Shown here in pieces: positions 3,023-49,199 of a DNA stretch of 64,000 nucleotides. Source of the DNA: a virus (Duplodnaviria > Heunggongvirae > Uroviricota > Caudoviricetes); the IMG/VR virus record IMGVR_UViG_3300009703_000007, positions 94,121 to 158,120 of that record; one strand, written 5' to 3'. The notes beneath the pieces are model-generated. The model was not told where the DNA came from and did not search any database. It worked only from the letters and a program-made list of their open reading frames with translations. The position numbers and the translations under genes were made by a program. Numbering within the stretch: position 1 is the first letter of the stretch; every line of letters starts with the position of its first letter.

Positions 3023-4594
3023 ATGAAGCAGTTCAAGGCCAAGAGGCTTGAAATAGCAGAGAAGTTTATTATGTTGGATGGCAAGCCATTCAATTTGAGA
3101 AACTATCCGCCGTTCATAGATGTGTATAACGTGTTCAATAAACAAGTACTTCTGTTTACTGCGCGCCAGGTTAGTAAGTCCACCACGCTGTCCAACTTAA
3201 TCCTCATCAACTCGATGCGGCCGCACTGGAGAAGCTTGTATGTAGCACCGTCACAGGGTCAGCGCAATGTGTTCTCCAACACGCGATTGGGCAAGGTGAT
3301 GCGGTATTCGCCGCTTATCGATAGGATATTTTCAGGAGGACCCGACACCACGGATCAAGTAGGTCATAAGATGTGGCGTAATGGGTCCGAGATTTTCCTG
3401 TCGTATGCGGATAAGGACCCGGACCGTATTCGCGGTATATCCTCTAACGAGAATTACTACGACGAGGTTCAGGACATGGATTATGACCAGGTAATCCCAG
3501 TCGTGAACGAAACGTTGTCAGCGTCACCCTATGGCGCCCGCGTAAACTACAGCGGTACTCCGAAAACGATGGAGTCAGCTATTCAGTCTTTGCACGATGC
3601 GTCTACGAAGAGTGAGTGGATGATGAAGTGCACAGGCTGCAGAAGATATAATGTACCAGGTATCAGGAACATAGGACTACACGGCCCTATATGTGCCTCG
3701 TGTGGGAAGAAGCTCAACGTTCGTAACGGTGTTTGGGTCGACACGGTCCAAGACAATGATCAAGGGCTGATCAAGGGCTACAGAATTCCACAGATCATTT
3801 TGCCGCTCCACACTGAGAACAGGGAGAAGTGGAAGGAGCTTCGGGCCAAGTACGAGGGCCCCATATCCATCTCAGATTCCAAGTTCAAGAACGAAGTGAT
3901 GGCCCAGTCTGATTCTCTCGGTAAACGTATGATCACGCTGCGTGACTTAGAGGAACTTTGTGTTGAAGACCACGTCATGGGGGAGACGCATAAGGCCAAG
4001 GACTACATCGCTACATTCGGTGGAATCGACTGGTCAGAAGAAGGTAAGAATAGACAGTCACAGACGTGTGTGTGGATTTGGGGTATCCATAAGACCACCA
4101 GACGACTGAGGTGTGTGGACTACAAGGTGTATAACTCCGGGCATCCGTTAGAGGACGTAGAAGACATCGCGTCCATACTGTCTGCCTGGAGGTGTCAGAT
4201 GGTTGTAGGTGATAGGGGAGGGGGAGCGCATGCCAATGCTCTGATTGACGCGTCTATAGGAGAGAACCGTACCTTTCAGATTCAGTGGGGGGCCTTCAAG
4301 AAGCCTATTACCTGGAGCACGCCTACTAACGCGTACTTTGTAGACAAGACCACTGCGTTTGACTCCTTCTTCCTCACAGTGAAGAAAGGCGTGGAGCTTG
4401 AGTTCGGGTCCCGGAAGGACATGGCAAAGGGGTTCAAGCACTTCCTCAGTGAGTACGAAGAAGTGACGCAGAACGGTGACGGTAGGCGGGTGTGGCGCAG
4501 GTCAGCCAGTAAACCAGATGATGCGCTACACGCCGCCGTGTTTGGGTGGATTGGATCTAAGGTATGGGCTGATAAGCTAGCCTTTTATACCTAG
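3023..4594 (+). CDS. terminase large subunit (TerL)-like
   Basis: 523-aa ORF. Deviant Walker A FTARQVSKST. Walker B YYDEV. C-terminal RNaseH-like nuclease acidic residues (FGGIDWSE, DDALHAAVF). Internal Cys4 ribbon. Confidence 0.6.
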   Translation: MKQFKAKRLEIAEKFIMLDGKPFNLRNYPPFIDVYNVFNKQVLLFTARQVSKSTTLSNLILINSMRPHWRSLYVAPSQGQRNVFSNTRLGKVMRYSPLIDRIFSGGPDTTDQVGHKMWRNGSEIFLSYADKDPDRIRGISSNENYYDEVQDMDYDQVIPVVNETLSASPYGARVNYSGTPKTMESAIQSLHDASTKSEWMMKCTGCRRYNVPGIRNIGLHGPICASCGKKLNVRNGVWVDTVQDNDQGLIKGYRIPQIILPLHTENREKWKELRAKYEGPISISDSKFKNEVMAQSDSLGKRMITLRDLEELCVEDHVMGETHKAKDYIATFGGIDWSEEGKNRQSQTCVWIWGIHKTTRRLRCVDYKVYNSGHPLEDVEDIASILSAWRCQMVVGDRGGGAHANALIDASIGENRTFQIQWGAFKKPITWSTPTNAYFVDKTTAFDSFFLTVKKGVELEFGSRKDMAKGFKHFLSEYEEVTQNGDGRRVWRRSASKPDDALHAAVFGWIGSKVWADKLAFYT

Positions 4595-5111: not shown

Positions 5112-5187
5112 TGGTGCTGGCGACAGGACTTGAACCTGTAACCTGCTGATTACAAATCAGCTGCTCTACCAGTTGAGCCACGCCAGC
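5112..5187 (-). tRNA. tRNA-Thr (anticodon TGT)
   Basis: Hand-folded cloverleaf. Acceptor gctggcg/cgccagc. D stem gctc/gagc. Anticodon stem gctga/tcagc with loop tttgtaa. T arm acagg-ttcaagt-cctgt. CCA encoded. Confidence 0.85.
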
Positions 5188-5554
5188 ATCCGTTATAGTA
5201 TAAAGCGGAGCAAGCCCTCTACAGGCCTACTCCGCGTTGCGAAGGGTAGTGGTGAGGCGGGGTGGTCTAGAGGATGAAGTGGAAACTCATGGAATGTGAC
5301 ATGGGCGCTGCGAAATGCATCTTCGACCAGTCACGAGCCTCTACCGGTTTACGCTTAGGCTTCTTCCTCGTCTGCGCACGAAGGTCGTACAGAGACGCCA
5401 TAGCGCTTCCGAGCTGCATCATTTCACTATTTTCCAACATCTGGCAAAAACCATTAGTCATTTCTTTAAGGGCTGCGGTGTCGACGTTACGAATCATTTG
5501 TCTCGGATGCTCCTGTATCTATTTTAGGGTGACGGAAGGGGTTAAGTCAAGGAC

Positions 5555-5630
5555 TGGCTGCGCCACTTGGGTTCGAACCAAGGACCACCTGATTAACAGT
5601 CAGGCGCTCTACCAACTGAGCTATGGCGCA
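5555..5630 (-). tRNA. tRNA-Asn (anticodon GTT)
   Basis: Acceptor tgcgcca/tggcgca. Anticodon loop ctgttaa. T arm cttgg-ttcgaac-ccaag. CCA encoded. Confidence 0.85.
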
Positions 5631-5822: not shown

Positions 5823-6332
5823 CTAGACGCGGACCAGAGCCCTCTCGTCGTTCCAGGTGTGGTCTCGGAACCGGTTGCCGTCGTTGGCCTTCTCCGCGCG
5901 GAAGGTACGGGGAAGCTTCTTCAGCGTCACCGACTCGTTGAGTAGCCGTGTGACGTAGGTCTCGGCGTTACCCTCGGGTATCTGCATGTCGAAGCACGCG
6001 CCGTTGGCTTTCTGGAGACGCCGAGTCACGAGATCTCGAGCCCACGACTTGGTGTAGTTTCTCGTCTCGTGCTGAGGGTTGTAGCGCGCGAGCGCAGCTC
6101 GGAAGTTCCGGGCTCCGGTAATCCCCTCAGGAGATGGAGTCTCGTCCAATCGAACGAACCCGAAGGTCACCCGCTGGCCGTTGTTCATGTGGACGTGTCG
6201 GAAGTAAATCCTACGCCCCTCGCTGTCGCGATATTGAACAGGATCGGTAGCCTGCTCTGCTGTGTCACTCATAGAATCCTCTGACGTATGAGTTAGGGGC
6301 TGAGCTATGCGCCCAGCCTGGGGTGTTATCAT
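5823..6332 (-). CDS. hypothetical protein
   Basis: 169-aa ORF. Start codon overlaps the polymerase stop codon. Confidence 0.4.
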   Translation of the reverse strand: MITPQAGRIAQPLTHTSEDSMSDTAEQATDPVQYRDSEGRRIYFRHVHMNNGQRVTFGFVRLDETPSPEGITGARNFRAALARYNPQHETRNYTKSWARDLVTRRLQKANGACFDMQIPEGNAETYVTRLLNESVTLKKLPRTFRAEKANDGNRFRDHTWNDERALVRV

Positions 6333-9313
6333 AGGCTTTTACCAGATTCGGAAGCTAGATTCTTGAGGTAAGTCTCTAGCTCAGTGCTCTCACCATAGCT
6401 TGGGCCTACTTCTACGTCGTATCTCATAGGCACGGGTAGCCACGGGTAGCGCTCCGTTATCCGATCTCTCGCCCACTTATCTAGGAACGGCTTAAGCTCG
6501 TTCAGCCGTGATTTGGGCATCGTGAACACGATAGAGTCGTGGACGGTTATGCGCACAGTTCCACCTATCTCTCCTATGTGCTCTGCCATCTCTATCAGCT
6601 GTCCGAAGACAATGTCGCTAGCGGTGGACTGGATTTTGAAGTTAACTGCTTCACGTATGGCTGCGTTGAACATCCCTCGAAGTCCACGAAGCGGAAATCG
6701 TCTACGACGTCCCATCCGTGTTTCCACCCACCCTTGTTTGACAACCTCTCTCTTCGTTTCAGAGATGTAGTTCTCTATGAGTGGAAAAGCCTTCATTAGA
6801 CCGTTGATGATCTCCTGTGCTTCATGCTCTGGTATTTCCAGGTCTTGAGCTAGCCGGATCTTAGTCATGCCATACAGCACACCGAATACTGTACGCTTTG
6901 TCTTACGTCGGGCTTCTTCGTACACAGGAAGCAGGTGCATGATGCTAGCTCGATGCGTGTACTCCTTCTTAGACAGCCCCGTCGCTTCTCCTTCAGTCAT
7001 CCGTACCAAGATTATGTCTCGGTAGGGAATTATATCCTTAGGGTCTTTAGCGATAGCCGCGGATATTCTGTGGGTGAACAGGCTGTGTATGTCTTCTTCC
7101 GGATTCTTGAGAACGCGTATAAGGTCAGGGTCTGGAGCGTATGCACTCAGTACCCGTAGCTCAGCACCACTGTAATCCATGTTGACAACAACGTCGTTGG
7201 CATCTACGGGAATGAAGAGCTTCTTGATGTTGATGCCGTGCATTTTCTTGGGGATATTCTGAAGGTTCTTCCGAGCAGAGCTCAGACGTCCTGTGGAGGT
7301 TCCGTTGATGTTGAACTGCGTGTGTATGCGGCCGTCCAGCTCCGACAGTTCGTGAATGCCTGTACGGCCTCTTAGGAAGCCATTGAGCGCCTTGCTGCAT
7401 TCTCTGAAGTTGAGTATAGCCCTGCACAACAGTGCCCCGTCAGGAGTAACGTCTTCGTGCTTGACTAGCCGCTCAAGGGCAGCTTTGTCAGCTGTTGGGT
7501 TGCCCGTCTTCTCGCTAGTAGCTACGATGGGCATGCCTTGTTCCATGAACAGAACGGTAGGCAGGTCCTTACTGGAGTTGATGTTGAATTCGTGTCCAGC
7601 GAGTCTGAACACCTCCTCCTGGTACTTTTCCTTAAGCTCCCTAAACTGAACCTCCAGCTTTTCTAGATACTTTCGGTCTATAGCGAACCCTGCCATCTCC
7701 ATGTCACCAAGAACTTGCGTTCCAGGGAGAGCGTAAGTGGTCATCACGCTGTACAAGCCTGGTGTAAATCTTTTTACCTGAGCTTTAGTTATACGTCGCG
7801 TGATATCCGCGTCTATAGATGCATAGATCAGGAGCATGTTCAGAGGAATGTCTTCGAACGTTGTTTGTTCTCCCTTCTTGCGCTCCAACTTCTCCCGAGC
7901 TTTCTTGGCTTTCTTGGCATCCTTTGTACGGGTATACGCGCCCTCTATGAGCGCAATCTCTCTAGCAAGTGCTCGAAGTTCCAGGCCTTCCTTTTCAGTC
8001 AAGGTTCCAGCTGTGACCTTACGACGTAATTTGCCGCGCTTCTTCCGAAAAGGTGCACCCTTGTTTTTGTAGAACTCCAGTCGGACATCCAGGTCTTCGG
8101 GAGCGTCAGGATCATCTCCCACTTCCAGCAGTACAAGAGCCTCATTCATCAGAGCTTCCTTGAGCTCCTCAGTCTGGTCCACTTCCTCTTGTAGAGCCTC
8201 TGGAGTGATGGAATCTTCAGAATTAAGCAGTTCAGTCTGTGTGTTCAGAAACTGCTTGACCTTGTTTTCGTACCCTACAAACTCTGGGACGTAGTATGTC
8301 GTTAGAGACTTCAAACCGTAGTAGCCTCTCTTGGCCTCATCCAGTAGGTGCTCACCCAACATGCTGTCCCAAGCTACGCCCTTTACCGGAATGCCAAGTA
8401 CATGCTCTATGAACTTGACGTCGAACTTACCGTTATGAAACGCCTTGGGCTTAGAGCTACTAAGTATCTGTGTCAGCAACGGTTTGAGCGGAGTCCAGTC
8501 GTAAGGAGCATCCTTGTGGTCTAATACGATTGCAGTGGACGCACCATGATCCCAGCTGATGCTGATCATGATAACCTTAGCATCAGGGCTGTGGGGGAGC
8601 AACGTGTTGGTTTCTACGTCAACTGCCACCAGCCACTTGTCAGGGTCACCGTTTTCTTCCCCTGTGTACGCAAGAATCTTACGAAGAGCTCTATCAGCAC
8701 CTGCCAGGTCAGGAGGGATATCGTAATCCGACGTCAGCTCTTCCAGCTTGATAGGCGCTGTCTCGTCTACCATAGGGCGATGTGCGTAGTCGATAGCTCT
8801 ACGAACGTCATCTCTGAAGGTATTATAAAGCCCCGATGACTTGAACACCGAGTAGGGGTGCAACGTAGGTAGTATTCGATAGTTGATACCGTCTATGTTC
8901 AGAGTCATCTCTTTCCCTGATACTTTTCGTATACTACGTGCCTTCACGCCTAGTGTCTTGAGGGCATCTCCGCCCATAGGTACTATGACTCTAGGAGCTA
9001 CACTGTGTATTTCCTGTAGTACCTGCGGAGCACACTTCTTCAGGCTCACGGCATCTATCTTAGAGGACCCACACCTAGTAGAGTACGCAAAGTACCTGGT
9101 GAAGTTCCTGTACCTGTCACCGTGCTTGGCCAGCTCCGCTATCGCGCTGTCAAGCACCTTGTTAGCACTGGAAGTGAACGGCTTATCGTATATGAGCTCA
9201 CTATCGGCGGGGTTACCTACGAGGAATAGGACATCAGGTGACCTTGGTCCTCTACCTCTAAACCCGCGTTCGTCGTACCGAGGACATCCTCGACATAATT
9301 CAGTCTTTTGCAT
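6329..9313 (-). CDS. family A DNA polymerase with 3'-5' exonuclease and an N-terminal UDG (family 4-like) domain
   Basis: 994 aa. N-terminal UDG-like domain: CRGC...LFLVGNPADSE...LPTLHPY (compare UDG-4 GEAPG / HPS motifs). Exo I VAVDVETN. Exo II HNGKFD. Pol motif A DYSGAELR. Motif B RRKTKRTVFGVLYG. Motif C VHDSIVF. Confidence 0.9.
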   Translation of the reverse strand: MQKTELCRGCPRYDERGFRGRGPRSPDVLFLVGNPADSELIYDKPFTSSANKVLDSAIAELAKHGDRYRNFTRYFAYSTRCGSSKIDAVSLKKCAPQVLQEIHSVAPRVIVPMGGDALKTLGVKARSIRKVSGKEMTLNIDGINYRILPTLHPYSVFKSSGLYNTFRDDVRRAIDYAHRPMVDETAPIKLEELTSDYDIPPDLAGADRALRKILAYTGEENGDPDKWLVAVDVETNTLLPHSPDAKVIMISISWDHGASTAIVLDHKDAPYDWTPLKPLLTQILSSSKPKAFHNGKFDVKFIEHVLGIPVKGVAWDSMLGEHLLDEAKRGYYGLKSLTTYYVPEFVGYENKVKQFLNTQTELLNSEDSITPEALQEEVDQTEELKEALMNEALVLLEVGDDPDAPEDLDVRLEFYKNKGAPFRKKRGKLRRKVTAGTLTEKEGLELRALAREIALIEGAYTRTKDAKKAKKAREKLERKKGEQTTFEDIPLNMLLIYASIDADITRRITKAQVKRFTPGLYSVMTTYALPGTQVLGDMEMAGFAIDRKYLEKLEVQFRELKEKYQEEVFRLAGHEFNINSSKDLPTVLFMEQGMPIVATSEKTGNPTADKAALERLVKHEDVTPDGALLCRAILNFRECSKALNGFLRGRTGIHELSELDGRIHTQFNINGTSTGRLSSARKNLQNIPKKMHGINIKKLFIPVDANDVVVNMDYSGAELRVLSAYAPDPDLIRVLKNPEEDIHSLFTHRISAAIAKDPKDIIPYRDIILVRMTEGEATGLSKKEYTHRASIMHLLPVYEEARRKTKRTVFGVLYGMTKIRLAQDLEIPEHEAQEIINGLMKAFPLIENYISETKREVVKQGWVETRMGRRRRFPLRGLRGMFNAAIREAVNFKIQSTASDIVFGQLIEMAEHIGEIGGTVRITVHDSIVFTMPKSRLNELKPFLDKWARDRITERYPWLPVPMRYDVEVGPSYGESTELETYLKNLASESGKSL

Positions 9314-9584
9314 TTGGACGGAAAATCGCTACGTATCTCCAAGTTAAGTTATCTGTATCCCAGCATTTATGGACATCACTTTCTCTTAGGCTGCGGCCCT
9401 GAGCGATTTGGTGTCGATGCATGTCGGGATCGTGTATGTTGTTAGTGATCACAATCTCAGTTTGGACTGCAGGTACTAAAAGGAAGGTCTTGATCCCAGG
9501 CGCCTCCTGCTGCGCTCCCTCCCCAGAATCGCTATGACCCGAGGGAGGAGGCAACAGGAGCTGGGCTGGCGCCCAAGGTAGCAT
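9300..9584 (-). CDS. hypothetical protein
   Basis: 94-aa ORF tightly coupled between the E1-like gene and the polymerase. Confidence 0.3.
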   Translation of the reverse strand: MLPWAPAQLLLPPPSGHSDSGEGAQQEAPGIKTFLLVPAVQTEIVITNNIHDPDMHRHQIAQGRSLRESDVHKCWDTDNLTWRYVAIFRPNAKD

Positions 9585-10205
9585 TTAGAATCGCTTAATG
9601 AAGCTGCCTGGGTTGGCGATGCCTCGTATGCGGTTGATTACAAGCTGAGCACCTATGGGGCCAATGATCTGGTTACCCAACTGGATGATACCCGCTGCCA
9701 TGTCGGACGGACGCTGACAACTACCATCTTCGTCACTTGCAGACGCCAGTGTTGCAGACAGCTTGTCGTACCGATCTCGCCTCTCGTCGGGTGTAGCAGC
9801 GCCTACTGCGCTACCCGGCGTAAAGAAGCTGATGGTACGCCCCTCTGCACGAAGGTCGATGAAGTACGTTCCAGTGTTGAGCCAGTGATCGAATACTGCC
9901 TGTCTAGTAGCGGCGTTGTCCACCGCGCATACCAAGATGTCAGGGCTGAACCCCTCCATGTCCTTAGCAGTGACCCGCTTACAGTGCCCCGGAAAGCCTA
10001 GCCGGTAGTCTATTGCTTCGACCTTGTCCAGGCCGATATCCTCCGCCTCGAAGTTCTGATAGGTGATATTCTTTTCTTCTACGATATCTGGGTCGAAGAA
10101 CTGGATGTCGGTTTTGTCTGGAAACTGCTTGGCTTTCTCTAGGTTAGATAGAGTCTGCGCGAAGAAGCTACCAATACCGCCGGCGCCAAGAGTGAAAATC
10201 TGCAT
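9585..10205 (-). CDS. E1-like / ThiF-MoeB family adenylyltransferase (minimal, 206 aa)
   Basis: Rossmann motif GAGGIGS near the N-terminus. Segment FDPDIVEEKNITYQNF corresponds to ThiF/MoeB DxDxVExSNLNRQ. Conserved core ILVCAVDNAATRQ. Confidence 0.7.
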   Translation of the reverse strand: MQIFTLGAGGIGSFFAQTLSNLEKAKQFPDKTDIQFFDPDIVEEKNITYQNFEAEDIGLDKVEAIDYRLGFPGHCKRVTAKDMEGFSPDILVCAVDNAATRQAVFDHWLNTGTYFIDLRAEGRTISFFTPGSAVGAATPDERRDRYDKLSATLASASDEDGSCQRPSDMAAGIIQLGNQIIGPIGAQLVINRIRGIANPGSFIKRF

Positions 10206-10683
10206 AGATTCCTTGAGACCCGTAGTCAGAGGGAAGCGTTTGAGTGTACTCAGTGAGCTCGCAAGCTACTATCTGATCCACCTCGTTAGCACCCACTATA
10301 GGTCCGGTGTTGAAGTCGTGGTCGTCTGCGTACGCCTTTGGTGCGTAGCAGAAGAACGTATTGTACGATACCGAGTAAATGATCTCTCGTTCAGGGTAAC
10401 GCGCCGCTCCAATGTCGGTGGGTGAAGGTAGCGCCATACCAAACGGGTGTGAGTGAAATCGGTATATGAGTTCGTAGTCGTCAGAGGCCCCCCGTCTAAC
10501 TTCACGTTGCATCTGTGCCCATACCGCTGGATCCATTTCGAATTCTACGGCAGCGGACGGTGCTGTGATTGTGTTGGGTACGGGTATTACACTGACAGTG
10601 TTTGACTGGGTATGCAGCAGGACGACCCCACACACTTCTCGTGAGGGGTCTTCCTTGCATAGATCCCTAATTTGGGATAGCAT
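10168..10683 (-). CDS. JAB/MPN (JAMM) metalloprotease
   Basis: JAMM motif HSHPFGMALPSPTD (HxHx7Sx2D) with upstream EVCGVV glutamate. Start overlaps the Ubl stop. Confidence 0.75.
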   Translation of the reverse strand: MLSQIRDLCKEDPSREVCGVVLLHTQSNTVSVIPVPNTITAPSAAVEFEMDPAVWAQMQREVRRGASDDYELIYRFHSHPFGMALPSPTDIGAARYPEREIIYSVSYNTFFCYAPKAYADDHDFNTGPIVGANEVDQIVACELTEYTQTLPSDYGSQGIYADFHSWRRRYW

Positions 10684-10919
10684 TAGCCGCCGACAGAAGC
10701 CGGCATGACCGTAGCGCTACCACCACGCTCGAAGGCACTGCGAACAGAAGCCTTGTCGGTGAGCATGTCGTTAGTGGCGTCGTCGAACACCCACATGCCC
10801 TTGTCGAGCTCTGCGTCTAGAAGTCCCATAGCCTCTGCTAAGAGGAGGTCCTTCTTTTCATCGCCCATGTGGTTCAGGATCTTGATCTCTACGCGAATTG
10901 CCTTTGCTTCAGTTGCCAT
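10683..10919 (-). CDS. small ubiquitin-like (ThiS/MoaD-like) protein ending in Gly-Gly
   Basis: 78-aa ORF whose last residues are ...VMPASVGG followed directly by the stop. Translationally coupled to the JAB and E1-like genes. Confidence 0.55.
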   Translation of the reverse strand: MATEAKAIRVEIKILNHMGDEKKDLLLAEAMGLLDAELDKGMWVFDDATNDMLTDKASVRSAFERGGSATVMPASVGG

Positions 10920-10936
10920 TTCTTTGTTCTCCTATG

Positions 10937-13552
10937 TTAGTTCTTAACGTGTCGCCGTAGTGTGTGGATGTCCTGCACAGTCTGAGTGTCTAGAGCCACG
11001 GCGTATATCCGAGCTACAAGACGATCACGCCCTACTGTATTGGCCATCGCCGCACCCTTGTCGACAATGCAGATGTGCTGCCCCGCGCCGTCATGGACGT
11101 GGTTTTCGCCATCCTTCTTAATGTAGTAAGTATTGCCTGAAGAAGCTGGAACTTTGTAATAGGTTCCGTTGAGTCCCTTGGGGTTTTCAACCTCGGTAAC
11201 CTTAAACCTCTTCATAGTGTTTTCTAGTAATTCCTTCGACCGCTCAAACGCTTTGAGCCACATCTTAATAGACGTCTGTAGAAGAAGTCTGACCTGTGCT
11301 GGATTGATATCCGGAACAGCTGTTGTCAGCACATTTTGTACGTCACGCACATTTGTGCCGTAGTAACCAAACCTGTAGTGGTCCACACGCCTTGCGTTTC
11401 CGTCGCCAACGCTCAGGGAGATCAGTTTGTTGATGTTCCTGACCCTGATCAGGTCTTCACCCTTAGGGTTTTTATCCGTCTTCTTGGCTGGAAGAACCAC
11501 GTAGTTCTTACCTTTGACGCGTCTAAGAGACACGAGGCCTGTGCTGGCGTTGTGTCCAAACCCTAAGTTCACAGAGAACTGGACGCCGTTAGTGACGTGA
11601 TTCATGATACGCAACGAGCACTTGCTGATGTTACCCACGAATGCGTCGAAGGTCTCTTGGTCCCGGAAGCACATCATGCGCATTAGCACAGGTACGATTT
11701 CAGCCTTGTTGACTCTCTTGCCTTGTATGGTGACTCTAGCGTGCCCTCGGGCTGTCTCAGAGTACTTCACTACTGCAGAAAGATCGTTGATAACTATCGT
11801 GATGTCGTCGTCGCCTTCTACACCATTGTAGAACTTTGACTTGAGGCCGTACTCACGGCCCTTAGCCCCTGCGATAGCAGGTGTTCCGTCACCCATCAAG
11901 CCCAGGATAGTCTGAAAGCAAGACGTCATGACGTCGTTGAACTCCACTCCTTCAATAGAAGCTGGGTTCAAAGACTCCAACCACGGCGTAAGCACCGCTG
12001 CGTCAAGTGTTAGCTTTACGTCCTGAAATGACAGGCCAGTGCGTGTGAATACAATGTCGCGGCTGGTCATCGTTTCACGCTTACCGTTGGCTAAGTCACG
12101 AAACTTCGTAGTTAACCGTTCACGCTTCAGCACTGCCTGCTGCGCAGGCGTTACTGTGATCCGCTGTCTGCGCAGGTCAGGTACTATCGTGCGACGGTAC
12201 CAATCAGCGGTTATACGTCCTGATCCAAACTGACTGTAATACGTCGCTTTTAGAAGTGTCCACGCTCCGGAATCCCACTTTATTCCCGGCTCGATGGTTA
12301 GACCTGACTCTAGGATTACGTTACCTACGTCCAGCTGGCCCCAAAGTGGCTGCTCCCCGTTTACCACCACTAACATGGGCGTGCAGGTACCGCTGTTACG
12401 CGTTAGCCCCTCTAGGAGGGCTACTCGATAACCCTTGAATTCCTCCACCAACAGCACTCTAGTACACCTGTTGAGCAGTGTAGCGCCATTGCCAAGAACG
12501 TTTCTAGGGAACCCGGAGATGGCCTGGATCTCTGCGTCGATAAACGTTGTGTTGGAACCTAAGTATCTTGTAGGCAGGTCACCTTCGTTCAACGGAGTCT
12601 CTACGCTACGGTGGGTAATCCAGTGCTCGTGCATCCGCGTAAAGCAGGCATGCATATCAATGCCTGTGACCAGCGCTGTGTGCGACTTCCAGGACTCCAG
12701 ACGCCTCAAGTGCGCGCCAGTTGCCCCTTGTGGATAGAGTCCACTTCCCTTGTACTGGATACAGGAGTTTTGTCTGTTGCGGCTGTTCACAGCGTCTATC
12801 CCGCCTGCTGTGCCTAGTCCATAGAATCCATTAGGGTAATCGTTTTCGAAGTTGTTTCTACGGTACACAGCACGCGCCCTAGCAGGTAGCTCCGATCGAT
12901 CCGCCAAGAACGCAGACACCTTGCCTACTACGTACTGCTTTATCGGTTCTGGCAGGTCTTCTAGTTTGAATACCACCTCGCCGCCTTCAGTACGGTTGGC
13001 TACGACTAGATCGTAGACCTCTTTAAGGTCGTCACCGCGCACGAAGGATTCGCACCCAATAACAATCTGAGCTAGCTCGTGAGATATCTGGCCTATTGCG
13101 CTTACCTGGGCTATGACGAGCTTGTCGTAAACAACCACGTTGCCGCCAAGAGTACAAGTAAATTTGCCCAACTCTGGAGGCTTTTGTCCTTTCTCCAGCC
13201 TGACGAAGTCTACAGGACTGTTAGCTCCAACGCTACCGCGGTAGTCCTGCTTGACTACTACGGAGTACCTACCGAGCATAAGACCGGTTGCAAGGTTGTC
13301 TATCGACAAGTACCCATTGTTGGTCAGCCAGGACACGCTGGAGTCGTAGAGCGCACGCCTACGGTGGTTATGTGTTCCCAGCTTACGTGTTATTACTCGC
13401 AACTCTTCGTCGTCGAATAGGCCTGTTACGTAATTCAGCGCAGACAACCTTTCAAAGGTCATACCTTGCTGAACCATCTCCTCCGTCAACGTCTTGAAGT
13501 CCTCGTCGGACAGTTCGTCAGCTATTAATAGCTGTGAAAGATCTTTGCTCAT
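10937..13552 (-). CDS. large hypothetical protein (871 aa), upstream partner of the Ubl-JAB-E1 triad
   Basis: Long ORF in consistent coding frame. No motif I could assign. Confidence 0.6.
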   Translation of the reverse strand: MSKDLSQLLIADELSDEDFKTLTEEMVQQGMTFERLSALNYVTGLFDDEELRVITRKLGTHNHRRRALYDSSVSWLTNNGYLSIDNLATGLMLGRYSVVVKQDYRGSVGANSPVDFVRLEKGQKPPELGKFTCTLGGNVVVYDKLVIAQVSAIGQISHELAQIVIGCESFVRGDDLKEVYDLVVANRTEGGEVVFKLEDLPEPIKQYVVGKVSAFLADRSELPARARAVYRRNNFENDYPNGFYGLGTAGGIDAVNSRNRQNSCIQYKGSGLYPQGATGAHLRRLESWKSHTALVTGIDMHACFTRMHEHWITHRSVETPLNEGDLPTRYLGSNTTFIDAEIQAISGFPRNVLGNGATLLNRCTRVLLVEEFKGYRVALLEGLTRNSGTCTPMLVVVNGEQPLWGQLDVGNVILESGLTIEPGIKWDSGAWTLLKATYYSQFGSGRITADWYRRTIVPDLRRQRITVTPAQQAVLKRERLTTKFRDLANGKRETMTSRDIVFTRTGLSFQDVKLTLDAAVLTPWLESLNPASIEGVEFNDVMTSCFQTILGLMGDGTPAIAGAKGREYGLKSKFYNGVEGDDDITIVINDLSAVVKYSETARGHARVTIQGKRVNKAEIVPVLMRMMCFRDQETFDAFVGNISKCSLRIMNHVTNGVQFSVNLGFGHNASTGLVSLRRVKGKNYVVLPAKKTDKNPKGEDLIRVRNINKLISLSVGDGNARRVDHYRFGYYGTNVRDVQNVLTTAVPDINPAQVRLLLQTSIKMWLKAFERSKELLENTMKRFKVTEVENPKGLNGTYYKVPASSGNTYYIKKDGENHVHDGAGQHICIVDKGAAMANTVGRDRLVARIYAVALDTQTVQDIHTLRRHVKN

Positions 13553-18922: not shown

Positions 18923-19025
18923 TTTGTTCTTTGTTATTCTCCGTTGGCCACCTTTGGCCTGGTTGTTGTCGCTAATTATGGCACCTCAGGCGTGCATATC
19001 AAACTGAAATATTTATATATTTCGC

Positions 19026-19053
19026 TTGACATTGAGGGTCGCGACCTTATACT
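19026..19053 (+). promoter_or_regulatory. sigma70-type promoter (TTGACA-16-TATACT) for the sigma gene, predicted leaderless
   Basis: ttgaca at 19026-19031 and tatact at 19048-19053. The ATG is at 19060, 7 nt after the -10 element. Confidence 0.55.
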
Positions 19054-19059
19054 AAACGG

Positions 19060-19920
19060 ATGGCTGATAACAAAAAGAAGACCAGAGCGACTGGACCTAT
19101 TGCTGATGCTCGTTCACTATATTTCAAGGACTTGTCACGAGTCAAGATTCTAAAGGTTGAGGAAGAAAGAAAGATATACGCCGAGTACGCCGCGAGCGGG
19201 TTTACGGACACTGTAGCACGTGACAAGCTCTTGGAGGGCTGTCTCCGCTTGGTCGTAACTCGGGCGTCAAAGTTCAGCCACAACAACCCTGCGTTGTTGG
19301 ATGAACTGATCTGTGCTGGGAATGAGGGGCTGATGAAAGCTCTGACTAAGTACGATCCCACGAAAGGTACACGTATACCGTCATATGCCATCTGGTGGAT
19401 TGACCTATACATCAGAAACACCTTGAGTGAATCGCACCCTGTCAAGGTCCCTATGTGGCGACAGAAGCGTGGAGTCAAGCTTCGTCGTCTAAGGCAGCAA
19501 GGCAAAACAACCGCTGAAATGGCGGAAGAGTGCAACATTACTGAGGCGCAAGTAGAGGAGCTTGAGAACAGCAGATACTATAGCGCAGACATCGCCAGCG
19601 CTGACATCAACGGAAGCATGTCGTACGTGCGCTCTGTGTCGGACATGGATCTGTTCAAGAGCGTAGACGTCGAAGCGGACTCCATTGAGGAGTCTGCTAA
19701 ACGTGTACTCAACGAGGTAATTAGTGAGTTATCCGACGAGGAACAGGTCATCATACGGAGCTACTATGGCATTGGACGTAAGCCGCTGAACTTACCACAG
19801 CTTGCAGAAACAAAGGGAGTGACCTCTGAGCGCGTACGTCAGATAAAGAACAAGCTTCTGGTGCGACTCCGAGCCGCGTTTAAACGACGCGGAGTCAGCT
19901 CTATTGACGATCTTCTTTAG
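19060..19920 (+). CDS. sigma-70 family RNA polymerase sigma factor
   Basis: Region 2-like DELICAGNEGLMKALTKYDPTKGTRIPSYAIWWI. Region 4 HTH LAETKGVTSERVRQIKNKLLVRLR. Confidence 0.85.
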   Translation: MADNKKKTRATGPIADARSLYFKDLSRVKILKVEEERKIYAEYAASGFTDTVARDKLLEGCLRLVVTRASKFSHNNPALLDELICAGNEGLMKALTKYDPTKGTRIPSYAIWWIDLYIRNTLSESHPVKVPMWRQKRGVKLRRLRQQGKTTAEMAEECNITEAQVEELENSRYYSADIASADINGSMSYVRSVSDMDLFKSVDVEADSIEESAKRVLNEVISELSDEEQVIIRSYYGIGRKPLNLPQLAETKGVTSERVRQIKNKLLVRLRAAFKRRGVSSIDDLL

Positions 19921-41949: not shown

Positions 41950-42025
41950 TGGTGGAAGCGCGGGGGCTCGAACCCCGAACCTGCTGCGTGCAAGGCAGCT
42001 GCTCTCCCAATTGAGCTACGCCCCC
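41950..42025 (-). tRNA. tRNA-Ala (anticodon TGC)
   Basis: Acceptor gggggcg/cgcttcc with G3·U70. Anticodon loop cttgcac. T arm cgggg-ttcgagc-ccccg. CCA encoded. Confidence 0.8.
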
Positions 42026-42035
42026 ACATTGGTTC

Positions 42036-42111
42036 TGGAGCAAGCGATCGGGATCGAACCGACGACAGTCTGATTGGAAATCAGAGGCTCTACCAACTGA
42101 GCTACGCTTGC
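42036..42111 (-). tRNA. tRNA-Gly (anticodon TCC)
   Basis: Acceptor gcaagcg/cgcttgc. Anticodon loop tttccaa. T arm gtcgg-ttcgatc-ccgat. CCA encoded. Confidence 0.8.
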
Positions 42112-42317
42112 ATGGACCCCTGCGCTGGTTTAGGCGTGTCTAGACAACTCCCACCATCCACGCATTCTGCTGCGAACAGCCTGGCTTTAGGGCACAGCCA
42201 GTTGTGGAAACACCAACCTGGATCCACAGCCCGTCATCCATCCTAGGACGAGCACCACCTCAGCCCAACTACACCGTCGTGTAATTGTCATCGGGACTGG
42301 CGTTTTGGCGCCAGGGT

Positions 42318-42725
42318 CTACAGGTTGAGGGCCTCCCGCTGCTTGATGAGATCCTCCAGTGGAGTCTCCTTGGCCGATCGCTCTGCGATGATCGCATCAA
42401 GAGTCGCCTTCTGGGACTTCGTTGCTGCCACTGCCGTCTTGGCAGCGTTCTCCGCCGTGATCACGCCGATGATATGGCGTACGATGGCGATCTGGAGGTC
42501 CTGCTTCACTCGCTCCGGACTCGGAGTGTCTACACCGAAGATGCTCTCGTCGCCCACGTCCTTGCGATCCTTGAGGATCGCGTTGCCGACGTTTTCGAGC
42601 GAGGCTTTGTTGCTACGCGTGGTGCGCAGCGGAAGATTCCAGAGGTCGGAGACGGTGAGGTTGCCGACGACGGAGGGGAAGGTGAGGCGCTTGCGGGAGG
42701 CCTGCTCGAAGATGTTAGTGCTCAT
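42318..42725 (-). CDS. hypothetical protein (high-GC island)
   Basis: Start taken at MSTNIFEQ, internal to track ORF 42318..42875. Confidence 0.4.
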   Translation of the reverse strand: MSTNIFEQASRKRLTFPSVVGNLTVSDLWNLPLRTTRSNKASLENVGNAILKDRKDVGDESIFGVDTPSPERVKQDLQIAIVRHIIGVITAENAAKTAVAATKSQKATLDAIIAERSAKETPLEDLIKQREALNL

Positions 42726-42744
42726 GCTGCTGTTTCTCTCTTTC

Positions 42745-44778
42745 TCAGAACTGCACGTTGTACGTGCGAGTGGAGGTGCCGATGGTGACGGCGAAGGTTG
42801 CGGTGTCTTTCTTCGTGGACGAGAATCCCACGCCAGAGATCTGGTCGTCGGACAGCGGGCAGGTGGTCTTGGCACCCAGCACCTCGAACACCTTGCGATG
42901 CTCGGTCAGGTCTCCCCGGAGGTGCTCGTTGAAGAACCCACGAACGGTCATGGGGTTCTTGCATCCCCGCAGAACGAAGATGTGGTGCTTGTTGCCGGTG
43001 CCCTTCTCGCCCCAGTAGTTGGGAGAGAGCAGGACGGTGTCCACAGGCACGAGCGTGCCGGTAGAGACTCCCCACTTCTCCACGCTTGCCGAGCCCAGCG
43101 TCATGTTCTTGTCGAACGCGACACCCTCGACCTTTCCGTTCTTGACTTGGATGCCCATGACGGGCTGCTTGGCTCGAGCCTTGACTGCTCGCTCGAACTT
43201 GGCTCTGATCGTCTCCCCTCCGTGCTCGTACTCGATCTCGAAGCCGACGTCCGTGGCCTCTCGCTTGGTGTACTGGTGCACGAAGATCGCGTACTCACCG
43301 TCGCCGAACTTGCGGATCTTGGACTGGGTGAAGGCCAGGTTCTCCACCGCTTCCCGGGTGTGGGGGGAGACGTTCATGTCCACGTCGAGCACGCCCTGCT
43401 TGCTCCCGTAATAGATCTGCGCCCCGCGCGGGGTGATGCAGTGGATGTCCAGGTCGTCGTAGTTGTACCAACCGAGGGACACCCGAAGCCAGGCCTCGAC
43501 GTTGCCGCCGGCGGTCTTGACTCGCTGCTTGATCCCGTCCGCGACATCCCCGTCGTAGGCCCAGGCGAAGTTGTTGTCCCACTTGAAGAGCGGGGCGACG
43601 TCTTCTTCGGCCGGAGCGGTGAGGCTCACGAAGTTGCCGAGGTGGGACTTGTCCAGCTGGATGCTGATGGAGTCCGCCAGGGGCAGAATGGTCGACATGA
43701 AGTCGTCCACCGGGATGCTGACCACACCCTTCTGCTCCTTGGGAGCCTTGGGCTTGACTGCGGTCAGCAGCACGTCCATCAGGTTGTCGCGCATCTCGGG
43801 ACGAACATCCCGGTCCACGAACAGCACGTCGTTGACGGACACGTCCGACATCACCGCGAAGCGGCGGTTGATCGCGCTCTCCAGACCAAGCTCTCGGAGC
43901 TTGTCCACGGCCTTCTGCACCATGCCCGCAGTGATCGGAGCAGAGGTCCTCTTGTAGTTCTGCGGGGCCACCTTGGTTTCGAAGCGACCTACAGCCTTCT
44001 CGATTCCCATGCCATCGACCAGGTCCGTGACCAAAGTTCCGATGACTGTGTTGCGGAAGCGTGCTGCGGGATTACCTACGTTCATCCACGCGAAGTTGGT
44101 GCGGAGGTTGCCTGAGCAACCGTCGTACTTCTGCTTCAACGCCAAGAAGTTATTTACTGAGTGTGCGTGCTCTTCTCCTCGGTAGATGCTGTTGCTGGCG
44201 ATGAGGTCAGCCACAGTTTCAAGCGCTGCCAGGGAATCTTCCTCTAGTCCACGACTCAGCACCTGGTGCATTGCGGACGTAGCGCCCATAGCCTCACCTA
44301 CGCTAGTGGTCTTGCACTGCGTAGGCACGTTACCCTGGAAATGATTCCAGACGATGGTGTCACCGTTGTCGAGTTTCTCGACGTTGGAGACGTTGCCATA
44401 ACTGGCCTCGCGTGAGTGGTAGGTGCCGGCTATGGGGTGAGTCCGGATGAACTCGGCCATAGCCTCAGCTACTACACCCAGGAACCCGAACTCTCCGGCG
44501 TTGTCCCAGACGGTCTGGTAATTGCCGTTGGCATCCAGGACCACGATTCGTCCCAGATTCTTGATGAAGGATCGGCAGCAGGCACAGTCGTGCTCGGTAC
44601 GCTCACGGAAGATGGGGTTGGTGCCCTCTGGGAAAGACGTGAGGTACCAGTTCCAGAGATCGTCCTTGCTGGCGGTGGTCAGCAGGACCTGGGCTCCACT
44701 GGCGGTGATGTCGTTCAGACGAGTCCGCACATGGTGCGAGAATTTGGTGAAATCTGGTTTTGTCATGGTGCCTTTCAA
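42745..44778 (-). CDS. large hypothetical protein (677 aa, high-GC island)
   Basis: Long ORF with HDCACC and other Cys motifs. No confident family assignment. The antisense ORF 42325..44115 is typical high-GC noise. Confidence 0.55.
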   Translation of the reverse strand: MKGTMTKPDFTKFSHHVRTRLNDITASGAQVLLTTASKDDLWNWYLTSFPEGTNPIFRERTEHDCACCRSFIKNLGRIVVLDANGNYQTVWDNAGEFGFLGVVAEAMAEFIRTHPIAGTYHSREASYGNVSNVEKLDNGDTIVWNHFQGNVPTQCKTTSVGEAMGATSAMHQVLSRGLEEDSLAALETVADLIASNSIYRGEEHAHSVNNFLALKQKYDGCSGNLRTNFAWMNVGNPAARFRNTVIGTLVTDLVDGMGIEKAVGRFETKVAPQNYKRTSAPITAGMVQKAVDKLRELGLESAINRRFAVMSDVSVNDVLFVDRDVRPEMRDNLMDVLLTAVKPKAPKEQKGVVSIPVDDFMSTILPLADSISIQLDKSHLGNFVSLTAPAEEDVAPLFKWDNNFAWAYDGDVADGIKQRVKTAGGNVEAWLRVSLGWYNYDDLDIHCITPRGAQIYYGSKQGVLDVDMNVSPHTREAVENLAFTQSKIRKFGDGEYAIFVHQYTKREATDVGFEIEYEHGGETIRAKFERAVKARAKQPVMGIQVKNGKVEGVAFDKNMTLGSASVEKWGVSTGTLVPVDTVLLSPNYWGEKGTGNKHHIFVLRGCKNPMTVRGFFNEHLRGDLTEHRKVFEVLGAKTTCPLSDDQISGVGFSSTKKDTATFAVTIGTSTRTYNVQF

Positions 44779-45035
44779 GTTATAGGAGAGGAGAGCAAAC
44801 GCATGACCGGCATCGAACCCGTCTGTAAAGCCGTGCCTTACTTCTACGAATGCCCTTTGTCGTACTGGGGGACTAGGCAGGGTCGACCTGCTAGAATGGG
44901 CACCGAGTGCGTCGTCGCGACCGTGAACGTCTCAGGAACCTCGTCCACAGGTAAAGACCTGTGCGCTTTACTCAGCCTCTAGTCCCTCTTGATGGTTTTG
45001 TCGTGGTGCCTTTCTGGGCTGATTAACGTTTTTTT

Positions 45036-45110
45036 TGGTTGAGGGACGGGATTTGAACCCGCAACCTCCGGTATCACAAACCGGTGTTCTACCAATTGAA
45101 CTACCCCCAA
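45036..45110 (-). tRNA. tRNA-His (anticodon GTG)
   Basis: D arm gttc-aattggta-gaac. Anticodon loop ttgtgat. T arm gcggg-ttcaaat-cccgt. Acceptor ttggggg/ccctcaa with a G·U pair. Discriminator C. Exact 5' end uncertain. Confidence 0.65.
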
Positions 45111-45120
45111 AACAATGCTT

Positions 45121-45339
45121 TTACTTCTCCTTGAGAAGATGATATATGCTCAGCAAACTGAGACACAGGAGACCTGGGCCTAGTGCCAGGAACACCCAGC
45201 CCGCGTAAGAGCTCAGCATCTTTCCCAGGGTTATTCCACCCGGTCCCACCCCTGCAACCAGCAGTATGGTTGTGAGAGTAAAGCTGAGTGCGAACGGCAG
45301 TGTCCCAGCTAGCCCGGGGTCAGGAAGTTTGAACTTCAC
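45121..45339 (-). CDS. small membrane protein
   Basis: 72 aa, two hydrophobic helices. Confidence 0.4.
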   Translation of the reverse strand: MKFKLPDPGLAGTLPFALSFTLTTILLVAGVGPGGITLGKMLSSYAGWVFLALGPGLLCLSLLSIYHLLKEK

Positions 45340-45341
45340 GT

Positions 45342-45773
45342 CTAACCTCTCTTGATGGTTCTGTTCACTGTTACCAGCCTATCAACACTGGCGTGAGGGT
45401 CGAATAGGCGTACACCTTCGACCATGAATGCTTCCATGAGCTCGTGCTTCAGGATCTGCTCGCACGCCATCCAGGCGGTTTTGAGAACTCCTGAGCGTGA
45501 CGTGCCCAGTTCGATCGCCCACCACCGGCCCTTGCCGCGTGTGACTGCACCTGTGTGCGTGTCAGGGCGTTTGAAGGTTGTACGTACGTTGAACCCCCAG
45601 AGGTCTGGCGTGTCCAGGCAGGGAAGGTCGGCGTTGCCGTCCATGTCTGCTCGGTCTACGTACAGTGGGGTGATATCCCAGAGCCATTCCATGTCAACGC
45701 AGGACGGCGCAAAGGAAATCTCTCCCAGGAACCCCATGAGGTCTGCCTGTCTTTCTACGGTTTTCTCTGCCAC
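45342..45773 (-). CDS. hypothetical protein
   Basis: 143-aa ORF. Confidence 0.45.
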   Translation of the reverse strand: MAEKTVERQADLMGFLGEISFAPSCVDMEWLWDITPLYVDRADMDGNADLPCLDTPDLWGFNVRTTFKRPDTHTGAVTRGKGRWWAIELGTSRSGVLKTAWMACEQILKHELMEAFMVEGVRLFDPHASVDRLVTVNRTIKRG

Positions 45774-45827
45774 CGTATGCTCCTCAGCAAATGGCCTTTA
45801 AATGTATAGTCAAAGTAAATATAATGT

Positions 45828-45864
45828 CCGCGCAGCCAGGAGTTGAACCTGACCAAGGCCGTCT
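45828..45864 (-). other. tRNA 3'-half-like element (T arm + acceptor strand) without a matching 5' half
   Basis: Minus strand reads ...ggtcagg-ttcaact-cctgg-ctgcgcg-g. No complementary acceptor 5' strand or D arm upstream. Confidence 0.35.
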
Positions 45865-46168
45865 TAGTGTAAGGTAAATTTTTGTGACTCTTACGCGGCG
45901 GGTTGGACACTTGGTGAGAAGCAATTCAGTGGCAGCAACAGCCTAGCTGTTCCGCGAAACTCGCACAGACCTCATGGCTACACCTATCAGAGTTTCCAGG
46001 TACTCCAGCGCTTCAGCGTTTGGAGGCTCCGCTTCTAGCAGATCTATTGTCTCTGACAAGGTGTGCGGGCCGTGCTTACCACACATGCAACGACCCATGA
46101 AGGGAGTGTCTGCGGGTAGGTACTCAGCCTGAGCCTTGAGGTTGTGCAGGACGACGTCACGGAAGGTG

Positions 46169-46408
46169 TCAGTCGCTAGGTTTGGATTTTTCATCAGTCT
46201 CCCAGAAGTCTTCGCCCGTCACCTTGCACTTCAGGTATTGCATGAAGCGTATGGGTACGAGATAGAACATCAGGAACGGCACGACGAGGAACGTCACGTA
46301 GACGTAACCTCGGAGGCCCTTGATGGGATCGTACTCTGAGAACAGCCACCACACAAGGGCAGTGAACAGGAAGTAGAGCACGAAAGGTGTCAGTAGAAGA
46401 AAGGCCAT
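46169..46408 (-). CDS. small membrane protein
   Basis: Start taken at [10 protein letters not shown], internal to track ORF 46169..46495 whose N-terminus is the tRNA-Pro read-through. Confidence 0.4.
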
Positions 46409-46434
46409 TGGCTCCCTCAGGAAATGGTCGGGGC

Positions 46435-47284: not shown

Positions 47285-47296
47285 ATGAAATTTTAT

Positions 47297-49195: not shown

Positions 49196-49199
49196 ATCT

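Follow-up and report, generated by a model that had tools for sequence, protein, structure and literature searches.

We describe a four-gene module in the replication block of what appears, from its gene content, to be a large uncultured tailed phage. The window analysed here is a stretch of 64,000 nucleotides (nt), positions 94,121 to 158,120 of a 177-kb metagenomic contig (IMG/VR record IMGVR_UViG_3300009703_000007), about two thirds of which lie outside the window. On its minus strand lie side by side the genes for an 871-amino-acid (aa) protein, here called BIG, a 78-aa ubiquitin-like protein (Ubl) ending in Gly-Gly, a JAMM/MPN+-type metalloprotease of 171 aa (JAB) and a minimal E1/ThiF-type adenylyltransferase of 206 aa (E1). 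The four parts are present, intact and strictly co-inherited, and from this we infer every chemical step proposed below. Our favoured reading, held with roughly even confidence, is that the module is a phage-encoded system for conjugating Ubl to proteins, expressed together with the replication genes; between conjugation and thiocarboxylate chemistry, the evidence leans towards conjugation. What may be new here is the phage-encoded set of Ubl, E1 and JAB, its location in a replication module, the minimal size of its E1 and its link to the BIG family, which may hold an E2-like domain.

A co-inherited module of Ubl, JAB, E1 and BIG

A scan of IMG/VR with the BIG alignment returned 37 viral loci, the 15 database clusters of the E1 family and the 16 of the Ubl family gave access to more distant contigs, and custom hidden Markov models (HMMs) of the four proteins were run on all loci; overall, 29 non-redundant loci were analysed. 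BIG adjoins the Ubl gene in every one of these 29 loci, and the order BIG, Ubl, JAB, E1 is kept in all loci except two that have no JAB gene between the Ubl and E1 genes (L041 and L042) and four in which the Ubl gene lies just upstream of BIG and not downstream (L043-L046). This adjacency holds from 22% to 66% identity, including in L007, an element without a PolA gene at the module. A 9.7-kb contig with 50-70% protein identity shares both the genes and their order, and its small protein has the identical end ...GGSATVMPASVGG, followed by the stop codon. Clustering of open reading frames (ORFs) found BIG in all 29 loci, E1 in 28, PolA in 26, JAB in 25, a sigma-70 factor in 24, a 135-aa ORF in 20, RecU in 18, a class II ribonucleotide reductase in 16 and dUTPase in 15. 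In 26 of the loci, the module is followed by the PolA gene, and in 20 the 135-aa ORF, of unknown function, directly precedes BIG. Based on these neighbour counts, the module is a constant part of the block of genes for replication, nucleotide metabolism and early transcription in a large clade of phages. We also observed that the sigma-70 gene adjoins the Ubl module in related phage contigs.

The original prediction had identified three translationally coupled genes for a ubiquitin-like protein, a JAB protease and an E1, and a direct reading of the ORFs returned the same coordinates, lengths and minus-strand gene set (Table 1). The overlaps of these genes, by a TAATG between Ubl and JAB and by 38 nt between JAB and E1, suggest that they are indeed translationally coupled, and an AGGAG sits 8-12 nt ahead of the Ubl ATG, inside the gap that separates it from BIG. 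The trio had been placed directly downstream of the 871-aa protein and upstream of the DNA polymerase; this position stands, except that a 94-aa ORF before the polymerase had been overlooked. In reading order, the genes are thus primase-helicase, BIG, Ubl, JAB, E1, 94-aa ORF and polymerase.

The C terminus of Ubl reads ...VMPASVGG, exactly as had been claimed, with Gly77-Gly78 directly preceding the stop codon. No match to this protein was found in Pfam, NCBIfam or PHROG at E<=1, the ThiS, MoaD and Prok_Ub family profiles included, and PADLOC likewise gave no family match. Its AlphaFold2 model, computed from a 16-sequence alignment with a predicted local distance difference test (pLDDT) score of 81.3, has the ubiquitin order of elements, b-b-a-b-b-(a)-b (b1 9-16, b2 19-26, a1 27-39, b3 42-46, b4 51-53, a short helix 56-63, b5 67-73 and the tail). 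When this model was compared to the PDB by Foldseek, almost all of the top matches were beta-grasp proteins of the ubiquitin superfamily, that is, PB1, Ras-binding (RBD), UBL and SUMO domains, an archaeal ThiS/MoaD-like protein and, at rank 29, BilA (8tyx_A), with weak E-values of 0.05-0.3 and template modeling (TM) scores of 0.4-0.53. The beta-grasp fold on which the original prediction depended is, hence, the predicted one. Only two PDB sequence matches of the Ubl family profile reach its C terminus, CysO of Mycobacterium tuberculosis (E 0.59) and a ThiS/MoaD protein (E 0.82), both non-significant.

The Gly-Gly itself is no coincidence: it is invariant in 16 database homologues (16 clusters) and kept by every one of 29 distinct locus copies, the most divergent of which have about 20% identity. 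Twenty of these 29 proteins terminate in GG, and the other nine carry a tail of one to three residues (Q, N, C, VG, SL, AN, TH or NAN). Such short tails are the hallmark of ubiquitin and Ubl precursors that require trimming by a protease. In L041 and L042, which have no JAB gene between Ubl and E1, Ubl already ends in GG, which is consistent with JAB trimming the tails.

Judging from its sequence, JAB is a JAMM/MPN+ metalloprotease with a complete active site, as had been proposed from its HxHx7Sx2D motif. This motif (HSHPFGMALPSPTD) is accompanied by the upstream Glu16, and the five residues E16, H77, H79, S87 and D90 are invariant across 28 distinct orthologues; the protein matches Pfam Prok-JAB at E=1.1e-12 and 48 bits (cutoff 25). 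Its best match among curated families is the NCBIfam (Haloferax/haloarchaeal) desampylase (E=7.4e-9, below the family cutoff), the solved structure nearest to it in sequence is Pyrococcus JAMM1 (5ld9/5lda, E~1e-3), and it also matches PHROG "tail protein" families. Some loci carry an extra, unannotated gene of ~230-270 aa between Ubl and JAB (L006, 6680-7432; L008, 3168-3938), and similar insert ORFs are found there in L011, L012, L015 and L036.

The 206-aa protein is a member of the ThiF/MoeB/E1 adenylyltransferase superfamily, matching Pfam ThiF (PF00899) at E=5.3e-11 and 42.6 bits (cutoff 28.1). Residues 2-198 align to positions 22-207 of the 238 in this profile; since the alignment begins at position 22, the protein starts at strand beta-1, without the N-terminal helix of ThiF and MoeB. 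Residues G7, G9, G10, D38, D40, N46, Q50, K61 and D96 are invariant in 31 orthologues, and we take them to be the ATP and Mg site of ThiF/MoeB (GxGxxG loop, D-x-D, N..Q, Lys and Mg-binding Asp); R119 and C163 (G-S-C-Q-R motif) are kept in 30 of the 31, with C163 presumably mapping roughly to the place of ThiF C184 and MoeB C187. The match and the invariant nucleotide-site residues bear out the description of this protein as a minimal ThiF/MoeB/E1-type enzyme. It consists of a single adenylation domain, without rhodanese, Zn-ribbon, ubiquitin-fold or separate Cys domain, and it departs from the canonical UBA1/BilD-type architecture, having no Cys domain, no inactive second adenylation domain and no ubiquitin-fold domain. 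In the PDB, the E1 family profile matches UBA5, ThiF, UBA3, MccB, UBA1/6, Cap2, SAE2, TcdA and MoeB with E-values from 1e-7 to 1e-3, Uba4 also being among the matches; these values, all modest, place the 206-aa protein on a deep, separate branch. Its closest sequence relative in the PDB is 9egb/9egc/9egd, and we found no paper citing these entries. The best NCBIfam match is PRTRC_ThiF, with 50.4 bits against a cutoff of 144.75 (50-57 bits over orthologue sets), and the SAMP (small archaeal modifier protein) E1 model is matched at E 0.01-2e-5, with bits far below its cutoff.

BIG and its candidate E2-like domain

BIG gave no sequence match in Pfam, PHROG, PADLOC, NCBIfam or PDB. A word-indexed search returned a single relative, and an exhaustive HMM profile search found 349 cluster representatives at E<=1e-3, 190 of them at <=1e-10. 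These relatives are typically 600-750 aa long, and the part that aligns is their C-terminal ~270-500 residues. The protein is laid out as a variable N-terminal region of ~360 aa, a conserved core with the invariant residues R376 and D408, and a conserved C-terminal region of ~270 aa. In an alignment of 135 sequences, R376, D408, Y809, C828 and D855 are invariant (C828 in 135 of 135), and the near-invariant residues include N615, C628, S646, G656 and R678. The AlphaFold2 model of BIG has a mean pLDDT of 77.8, with most 10-residue blocks from residue 360 onwards near or above 90.

In this model, the C-terminal ~140 residues begin with a long helix, which is followed by a beta-meander; C828 comes after these predicted strands, in the segment G-x-x-I-C828-I-V-D-K, and two or three helices close the domain. 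From this topology we infer a UBC/RWD-like shape for the C-terminal domain, which is a lead at the level of the fold and does not establish membership in that family. An alternative site for an E2-like fold may be the middle domain (residues 584-655), modelled as four strands followed by three helices and containing C628. One locus bears on the autonomy of the C-terminal domain: in L006, a 95-aa ORF between BIG and Ubl (6008-6295) repeats only the last ~75 residues of BIG, with beta-meander, conserved Cys and helices, so the cysteine-bearing domain can exist alone. The only recurring Pfam match of BIG C-terminal domains is a weak one to DUF7737 (6 out of 40 domains, best E 1.3e-3), a family that no paper we found mentions. 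We also considered whether BIG is a fusion including the 135-aa or ~250-aa proteins of other loci, and found no relationship.

Proposed conjugation and its alternatives

If the module conjugates Ubl to proteins, the mini-E1, probably a homodimer like ThiF and MoeB, would adenylate the terminal Gly78 of Ubl, and the activated Ubl would move as a thioester to Cys163 of E1, to Cys828 of BIG, or to both. The C-terminal domain of BIG would serve as the E2, and the remaining ~730 residues would select the substrate, as has been proposed for the Bil E2 proteins, which act without an E3. Ubl would then be attached to a lysine of the target, which could be a component of the phage replisome or transcription machinery, a host protein or BIG itself. 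In tailed orthologues, the JAMM protease would trim the tails of one to three residues; in most orthologues, including the Ubl described here, no trimming should be needed, and the protease most likely reverses conjugation, because it is retained even though 20 of the 29 Ubls already end in GG. Conjugation is favoured by the nearest sequence relatives of JAB, which are desampylases, that is, Ubl isopeptidases, and by the invariant cysteine of BIG. Furthermore, a scan of 38 window ORFs revealed neither a rhodanese nor a cysteine desulfurase nor a thiolase, and the only PP-loop protein among them is TilS-like. A bolder and more specific version, which we put forward tentatively, is that a large clade of uncultured phages encodes a complete Ubl cascade, made of Ubl, a minimal E1, a new E2 family within a substrate-selecting protein of 600-950 aa and a deconjugating JAMM protease, which is core to replication and early transcription and tags a replisome, RNA-polymerase or host protein.

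Several results weigh against this reading. The original prediction had suggested looking for an E2-like domain in the 871-aa protein, and at the sequence level this search came out negative throughout: E2 profiles (UQ_con, Prok-E2_A-E and the Cap2 E2) of Pfam and PADLOC matched none of 40 BIG C-terminal domains, the profile search of the PDB with the C-terminal domain returned no E2, and hhalign gave a probability of 0.3% against four eukaryotic E2s. The comparison of the BIG model to the PDB by Foldseek gave nothing below E 0.6. E1 lacks the Cys and ubiquitin-fold domains of canonical conjugating E1s and resembles the sulfur-carrier enzymes ThiF and MoeB. Moreover, conjugate, target and thioester are all putative, and the inspection for partner enzymes covered 64 kb of the 177-kb contig.

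The resemblance of E1 to a single MoeB/ThiF-like domain could also be explained by a conjugation that needs no E2. As in SAMPylation by archaeal SAMP/UbaA or in Thermus TtuB/TtuC, the mini-E1 would both activate Ubl and transfer it to lysines, BIG would be the main substrate or a regulated client, with its invariant cysteine serving a separate function, and the JAMM protease would reverse the reaction. The archaeal UbaA is likewise a single domain of this kind, JAB comes closest to the Haloferax desampylase among families and to Pyrococcus JAMM1 among solved structures, the sequence searches gave no E2 signal in BIG, and BIG is always encoded beside the Ubl gene. Yet we consider this alternative, the likeliest of the rivals, unlikely, given that the invariance of Cys828 in G-x-x-I-C-I-V-D across 135 sequences is more typical of a catalytic residue, and that five invariant polar or aromatic residues over 500 aa are more than a substrate would normally require.

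Slightly less likely again is a sulfur-carrier or carrier-protein system, in which Ubl, adenylated by E1, would carry a thiocarboxylate or a C-terminal building block in the style of CysO-Mec+, BIG would use it in thiolating or otherwise modifying a nucleotide, DNA, tRNA or small molecule that replication requires, and the JAMM protease would process precursors or set the product free. The architecture of E1 is that of ThiF and MoeB, the non-significant matches to CysO and ThiS/MoaD fall on the C terminus of Ubl, and CysO/Mec+ and QbsE/QbsD are precedents for JAB/Ubl/E1 trios whose carrier ends in GG (PMC1779556); the module also sits among the nucleotide-metabolism genes for ribonucleotide reductase, dUTPase and PolA, in a phage with 10 tRNA genes. 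However, no rhodanese domain is fused to E1, and no gene for a cysteine desulfurase, a rhodanese, a ThiG/MoaE/CysM-like or a TtuA/TtcA-like protein was detected among the 38 window ORFs scanned; the sole PP-loop protein, which lacks Fe-S cysteines, matches the N-terminal domain of TilS. The suggestion that the 871-aa protein might contain a sulfurtransferase domain found no backing either, as BIG matches no known sulfur-transfer or pyridoxal phosphate (PLP) enzyme. Since the host could supply the sulfur, the absence of sulfur enzymes from the window is not decisive.

A different kind of proposal concerns the biological role and can coexist with conjugation chemistry. In a counter-defence function, the set would interfere with host Bil or with the type II cyclic oligonucleotide-based antiphage signaling system (CBASS), the JAMM protease stripping host conjugates or the system tagging defence proteins, with BIG as an adaptor. 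Bacterial Ubl systems are antiphage weapons that act through conjugation, which JAB proteases reverse (PMC11601596), the module appears to be expressed with early and middle genes, and in L007 it is found among Fic, DUF932, methyltransferase and TIR genes, which are typical of conflict or establishment regions. We nevertheless regard this role as improbable: the PADLOC Cap3/JAB and Cap2 models match only marginally (E 0.002-0.05), and anti-defence genes are usually variable accessories, whereas the fixed position and composition of the module across a deep phage clade suggest a core function. Finally, the notion of unrelated genes that happen to lie side by side, with a coincidental terminal Gly-Gly, has nothing in its favour beyond the lack of a direct sequence-family match for the 78-aa protein and is effectively refuted by conservation, because all 29 distinct orthologues, some with as little as ~20% identity, retain GG and the gene order is conserved, to which the overlapping genes and the predicted beta-grasp fold can be added.

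Known systems, genome context and implications

The module fits none of Bil, Bub, CBASS-Cap2/3 and PRTRC, and it reaches no curated cutoff for them. Pfam, PHROGs, PADLOC and NCBIfam, run on the module proteins and on two sets of distant orthologues, returned only superfamily-level JAB and ThiF assignments, and the models for PRTRC, Cap2/Cap3, desampylase and SAMP E1 all stayed below their cutoffs. Functionally, the closest system is Bil, which consists of the Ubl BilA, the E2 BilB, the JAB protease BilC and the E1 BilD, has no E3 and whose E2 is proposed to choose the target directly (PMC11601596). Both have four components, namely a free Ubl ending in Gly, an E1, a JAB/JAMM protease and an E2 (here a candidate), without an E3. 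Yet Bil sits in bacterial defence islands and the module described here is phage-encoded and lies in a replication block; BilD has an architecture of inactive adenylation, active adenylation and cysteine domains (IAD-AAD-CYS) (PMC11601596), compared to the single adenylation domain of the 206-aa phage E1; and, unlike in Bil, the candidate E2 makes up the last ~140 aa of a 620-950-aa protein without sequence similarity to any E2. At the sequence level, no relationship beyond the superfamily connects the Bil proteins to the module.

The archaeal SAMP/UbaA/HvJAMM1 system and TtuB/TtuC of Thermus likewise combine a small GG-ended beta-grasp protein, a single-domain MoeB/ThiF-like E1 and a JAMM desampylase. 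They belong to cells, work without an E2 and also carry sulfur for molybdenum cofactor (MoCo) synthesis and tRNA thiolation, whereas the phage module has an obligatory large fourth protein and an E1 that is ~60 residues shorter. The CysO/MoeZ/Mec+ and QbsE/QbsC/QbsD systems are also trios of Ubl, E1 and JAB, in which JAB trims the residues after GG or frees the product assembled at the C terminus of the carrier (Iyer et al. 2006, PMC1779556); their E1s carry a rhodanese, and their operons include a sulfur-accepting enzyme such as CysM, neither of which is seen here. With the PRTRC cassette of plasmids and integrative conjugative elements (ICEs), which provides the best NCBIfam match of E1, the module shares the character of a mobile-element set of unknown function around a short ThiF, but PRTRC_ThiF is the only model of that cassette that matched module proteins (here and in L006/L007), and the window ORFs scanned include no ParB. 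Bub forms Ser/Tyr oxyesters and has fused proteins and the serine protease BubE (DUF6527) (PMC11601596); the module differs in its separate genes, free Ubl and conserved cysteines in E1 and BIG, and has no DUF6527 match. In type II CBASS, the E2-E1 fusion Cap2 conjugates the system's own cGAS/DncV-like nucleotidyltransferase (CD-NTase) and not a dedicated Ubl; no CD-NTase was found among the ORFs scanned, and the PADLOC E1-E2 models matched with E 0.002-0.05 over the first 70 residues of E1 only.

Among phages, the only well-known pairing of Ubl and JAB is that of TAPI (Ubl) and TAPK (JAB-NlpC/P60) of lambda and T1 (PMC1779556), and JAB domains of the TAPK type belong to the PHROG "tail protein" families that the phage JAB matches. 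That pair has no E1, belongs to a tail-assembly module and has its Ubl fused to another domain, in contrast to the replication module with E1 described here. The closest relatives of E1 in cultured or GenBank phages, with ~30% identity over half of the protein, are found in crAss001-like Bacteroides phages, where a JAB-domain protein and a ThiF are encoded side by side between the primase and the uracil-DNA glycosylase (UDG) genes (L001, 4538-6654; L002, 4216-6648). These proteins are much larger (JAB 405-411 aa, with the motif HSHx..SGTD; ThiF 292-403 aa), no small GG-ended ORF is adjacent, and the upstream protein of 434-444 aa showed no homology to BIG in an HMM search. In GenBank, the pair is annotated only as "metalloprotease domain" and "thiamine biosynthesis protein", and we found no paper naming both crAss001 and ThiF; it may represent a second, unexplored phage E1/JAB system.

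The module itself is absent from GenBank phages. No BIG was detected in GenBank phages by tblastn with three BIG proteins (871, 716 and 622 aa), megablast with a 7.5-kb region found no nucleotide-level relative among 50,697 GenBank phage records, and, as far as these sequences tell, no cultured phage carries the module. An E1-profile scan of 185,579 species-representative genomes gave 27 matches, of which one has the module, on the same contig as L007; this contig (L007/L048), from a metagenome-assembled genome (MAG), has Fic, DUF932, methyltransferase and TIR genes in place of PolA. No description of the module was found in the literature. Together with the missing curated matches, this supports the view in the original prediction that the set is unusual and possibly undescribed.

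Table 1. Features of the 64,000-nt window, with positions counted from its first nucleotide
Feature	Position	Strand	Remarks
GpA-type terminase	3023-4594		Genome feature
tRNA genes (10)	5112-5630 and 41950-60491	minus	Thr, Asn, Ala, Gly, His, Pro, Val, Glu, Gln, Leu
UDG-like/3'-5' exonuclease/family A DNA polymerase, 994 aa	6329-9313	minus	Pfam DNA_pol_A E=6e-79, DNA_pol_A_exo1 E=3e-14, UDG E=8e-9
94-aa ORF, possible accessory	9300-9584	minus	ATG abuts E1 stop codon; 14-nt overlap with polymerase start
E1, minimal E1/ThiF-type adenylyltransferase, 206 aa	9585-10205	minus	38-nt overlap with JAB gene
JAB, predicted JAMM/MPN+ metalloprotease, 171 aa	10168-10683	minus	ATG and Ubl stop codon share one base (TAATG)
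JAB HxHx7Sx2D motif, codons	10414-10455	minus	
Ubl, ubiquitin-like protein, 78 aa	10683-10919	minus	17-nt gap after BIG
Ubl Gly77-Gly78, codons	10686-10691	minus	
BIG, large partner protein, 871 aa	10937-13552	minus	58-nt gap after primase-helicase gene
BIG C-terminal domain, residues ~735-871	10940-11350	minus	Candidate E2/UBC-like catalytic domain
BIG Cys828, codon	11069-11071	minus	
Primase-helicase, 1070 aa	13611-16823	minus	Pfam Zn_ribbon_DnaG E=1.6e-11 and PHROG DNA primase matches; directly upstream of BIG
PP-loop ATPase, 220 aa	29579-30241	minus	TilS N-terminal domain
Fused RNA polymerase, 1799 aa	31539-36938	plus	
LigD 3'-phosphoesterase/ATP-dependent DNA ligase, 591 aa	56709-58484	plus	

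The primase-helicase neighbour of BIG is also found in L003, L005 and L010. The 94-aa ORF has no family match in Pfam, PHROG, PADLOC or NCBIfam and, by ORF clustering, did not emerge as a conserved family from the loci at large; it shares the C-terminal motif SDVHKCWD..W with an 86-aa ORF at the same position in L003 and may be a lineage-specific accessory of the module. Scans for promoters and terminators gave counts near shuffled expectation and no clear signal within the module gene run, and the promoter-like sites closest to its upstream end lie around 18975-19145; this picture suggests that the array from ~18.9 kb down to ~5.8 kb is a single operon read leftward. The N-terminal domain of the polymerase is family-4 UDG-like. 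The PolA gene is in two pieces in L005, L006, L024, L039 and L041, which in L006 are separated by a LAGLIDADG-type ORF.

We assign the contig to a large tailed phage because the window encodes, besides the GpA-type terminase, an SNF2 helicase, nucleases (two, of the PD-(D/E)XK type), RNase H, an ATP-dependent ligase, a TilS-like PP-loop protein, a fused multisubunit-type RNA polymerase and tRNAs. In the RNA polymerase ORF, a bacterial-type beta subunit continues into the gamma/rpoC1-like N-terminal part of beta' (Pfam RNA_pol_Rpb2_6 6.5e-44; NCBIfam rpoB 1e-90, rpoC 1e-60). Its beta match is split by about 325 unmatched residues (about 805-1130), which start with ...CCFDEKHELL and contain ...LSEGN...; by eye, this stretch looks like a putative intein or homing-endonuclease insertion. 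The PP-loop ATPase, lysidine-synthetase-like, has an SGGEDS motif and matches TIGR02432 at E=1e-13, below the cutoff; despite this TilS-like protein, tRNA-Ile(CAU) is absent from the 10 tRNAs of the window. Eight of the tRNA genes are dispersed among many small ORFs in the GC-richer region from 42 to 64 kb, and a check for stop-codon reassignment in this gene-poor region gave no signal. The 591-aa protein resembles, in its combination of domains, a ligase for end processing of the nonhomologous end joining (NHEJ) type, here in a phage.

So far, Ubl conjugation in prokaryotes has been either an antiphage weapon, as in CBASS Cap2/3, Bil and probably Bub, or a part of sulfur chemistry; here, the set belongs to the phage. 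The module is tied to a wholly unannotated protein family of about 350 sequence clusters and occupies a fixed slot by the DNA polymerase. If the module conjugates proteins, phages too use Ubl tagging, be it for the control of replication or against the host, and the minimal E1 and the new E2-like scaffold would enter the evolutionary picture of ubiquitination. If the complete cascade is true, this would be the first case of a prokaryotic virus encoding an E1-E2-Ubl system, and the E2-like enzymes would gain a new branch. If, on the other hand, the module serves as a sulfur or carrier system, an unknown modification of nucleic acids or nucleotides would presumably take place during phage replication. 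With either chemistry, the four genes form a compact and directly testable system.

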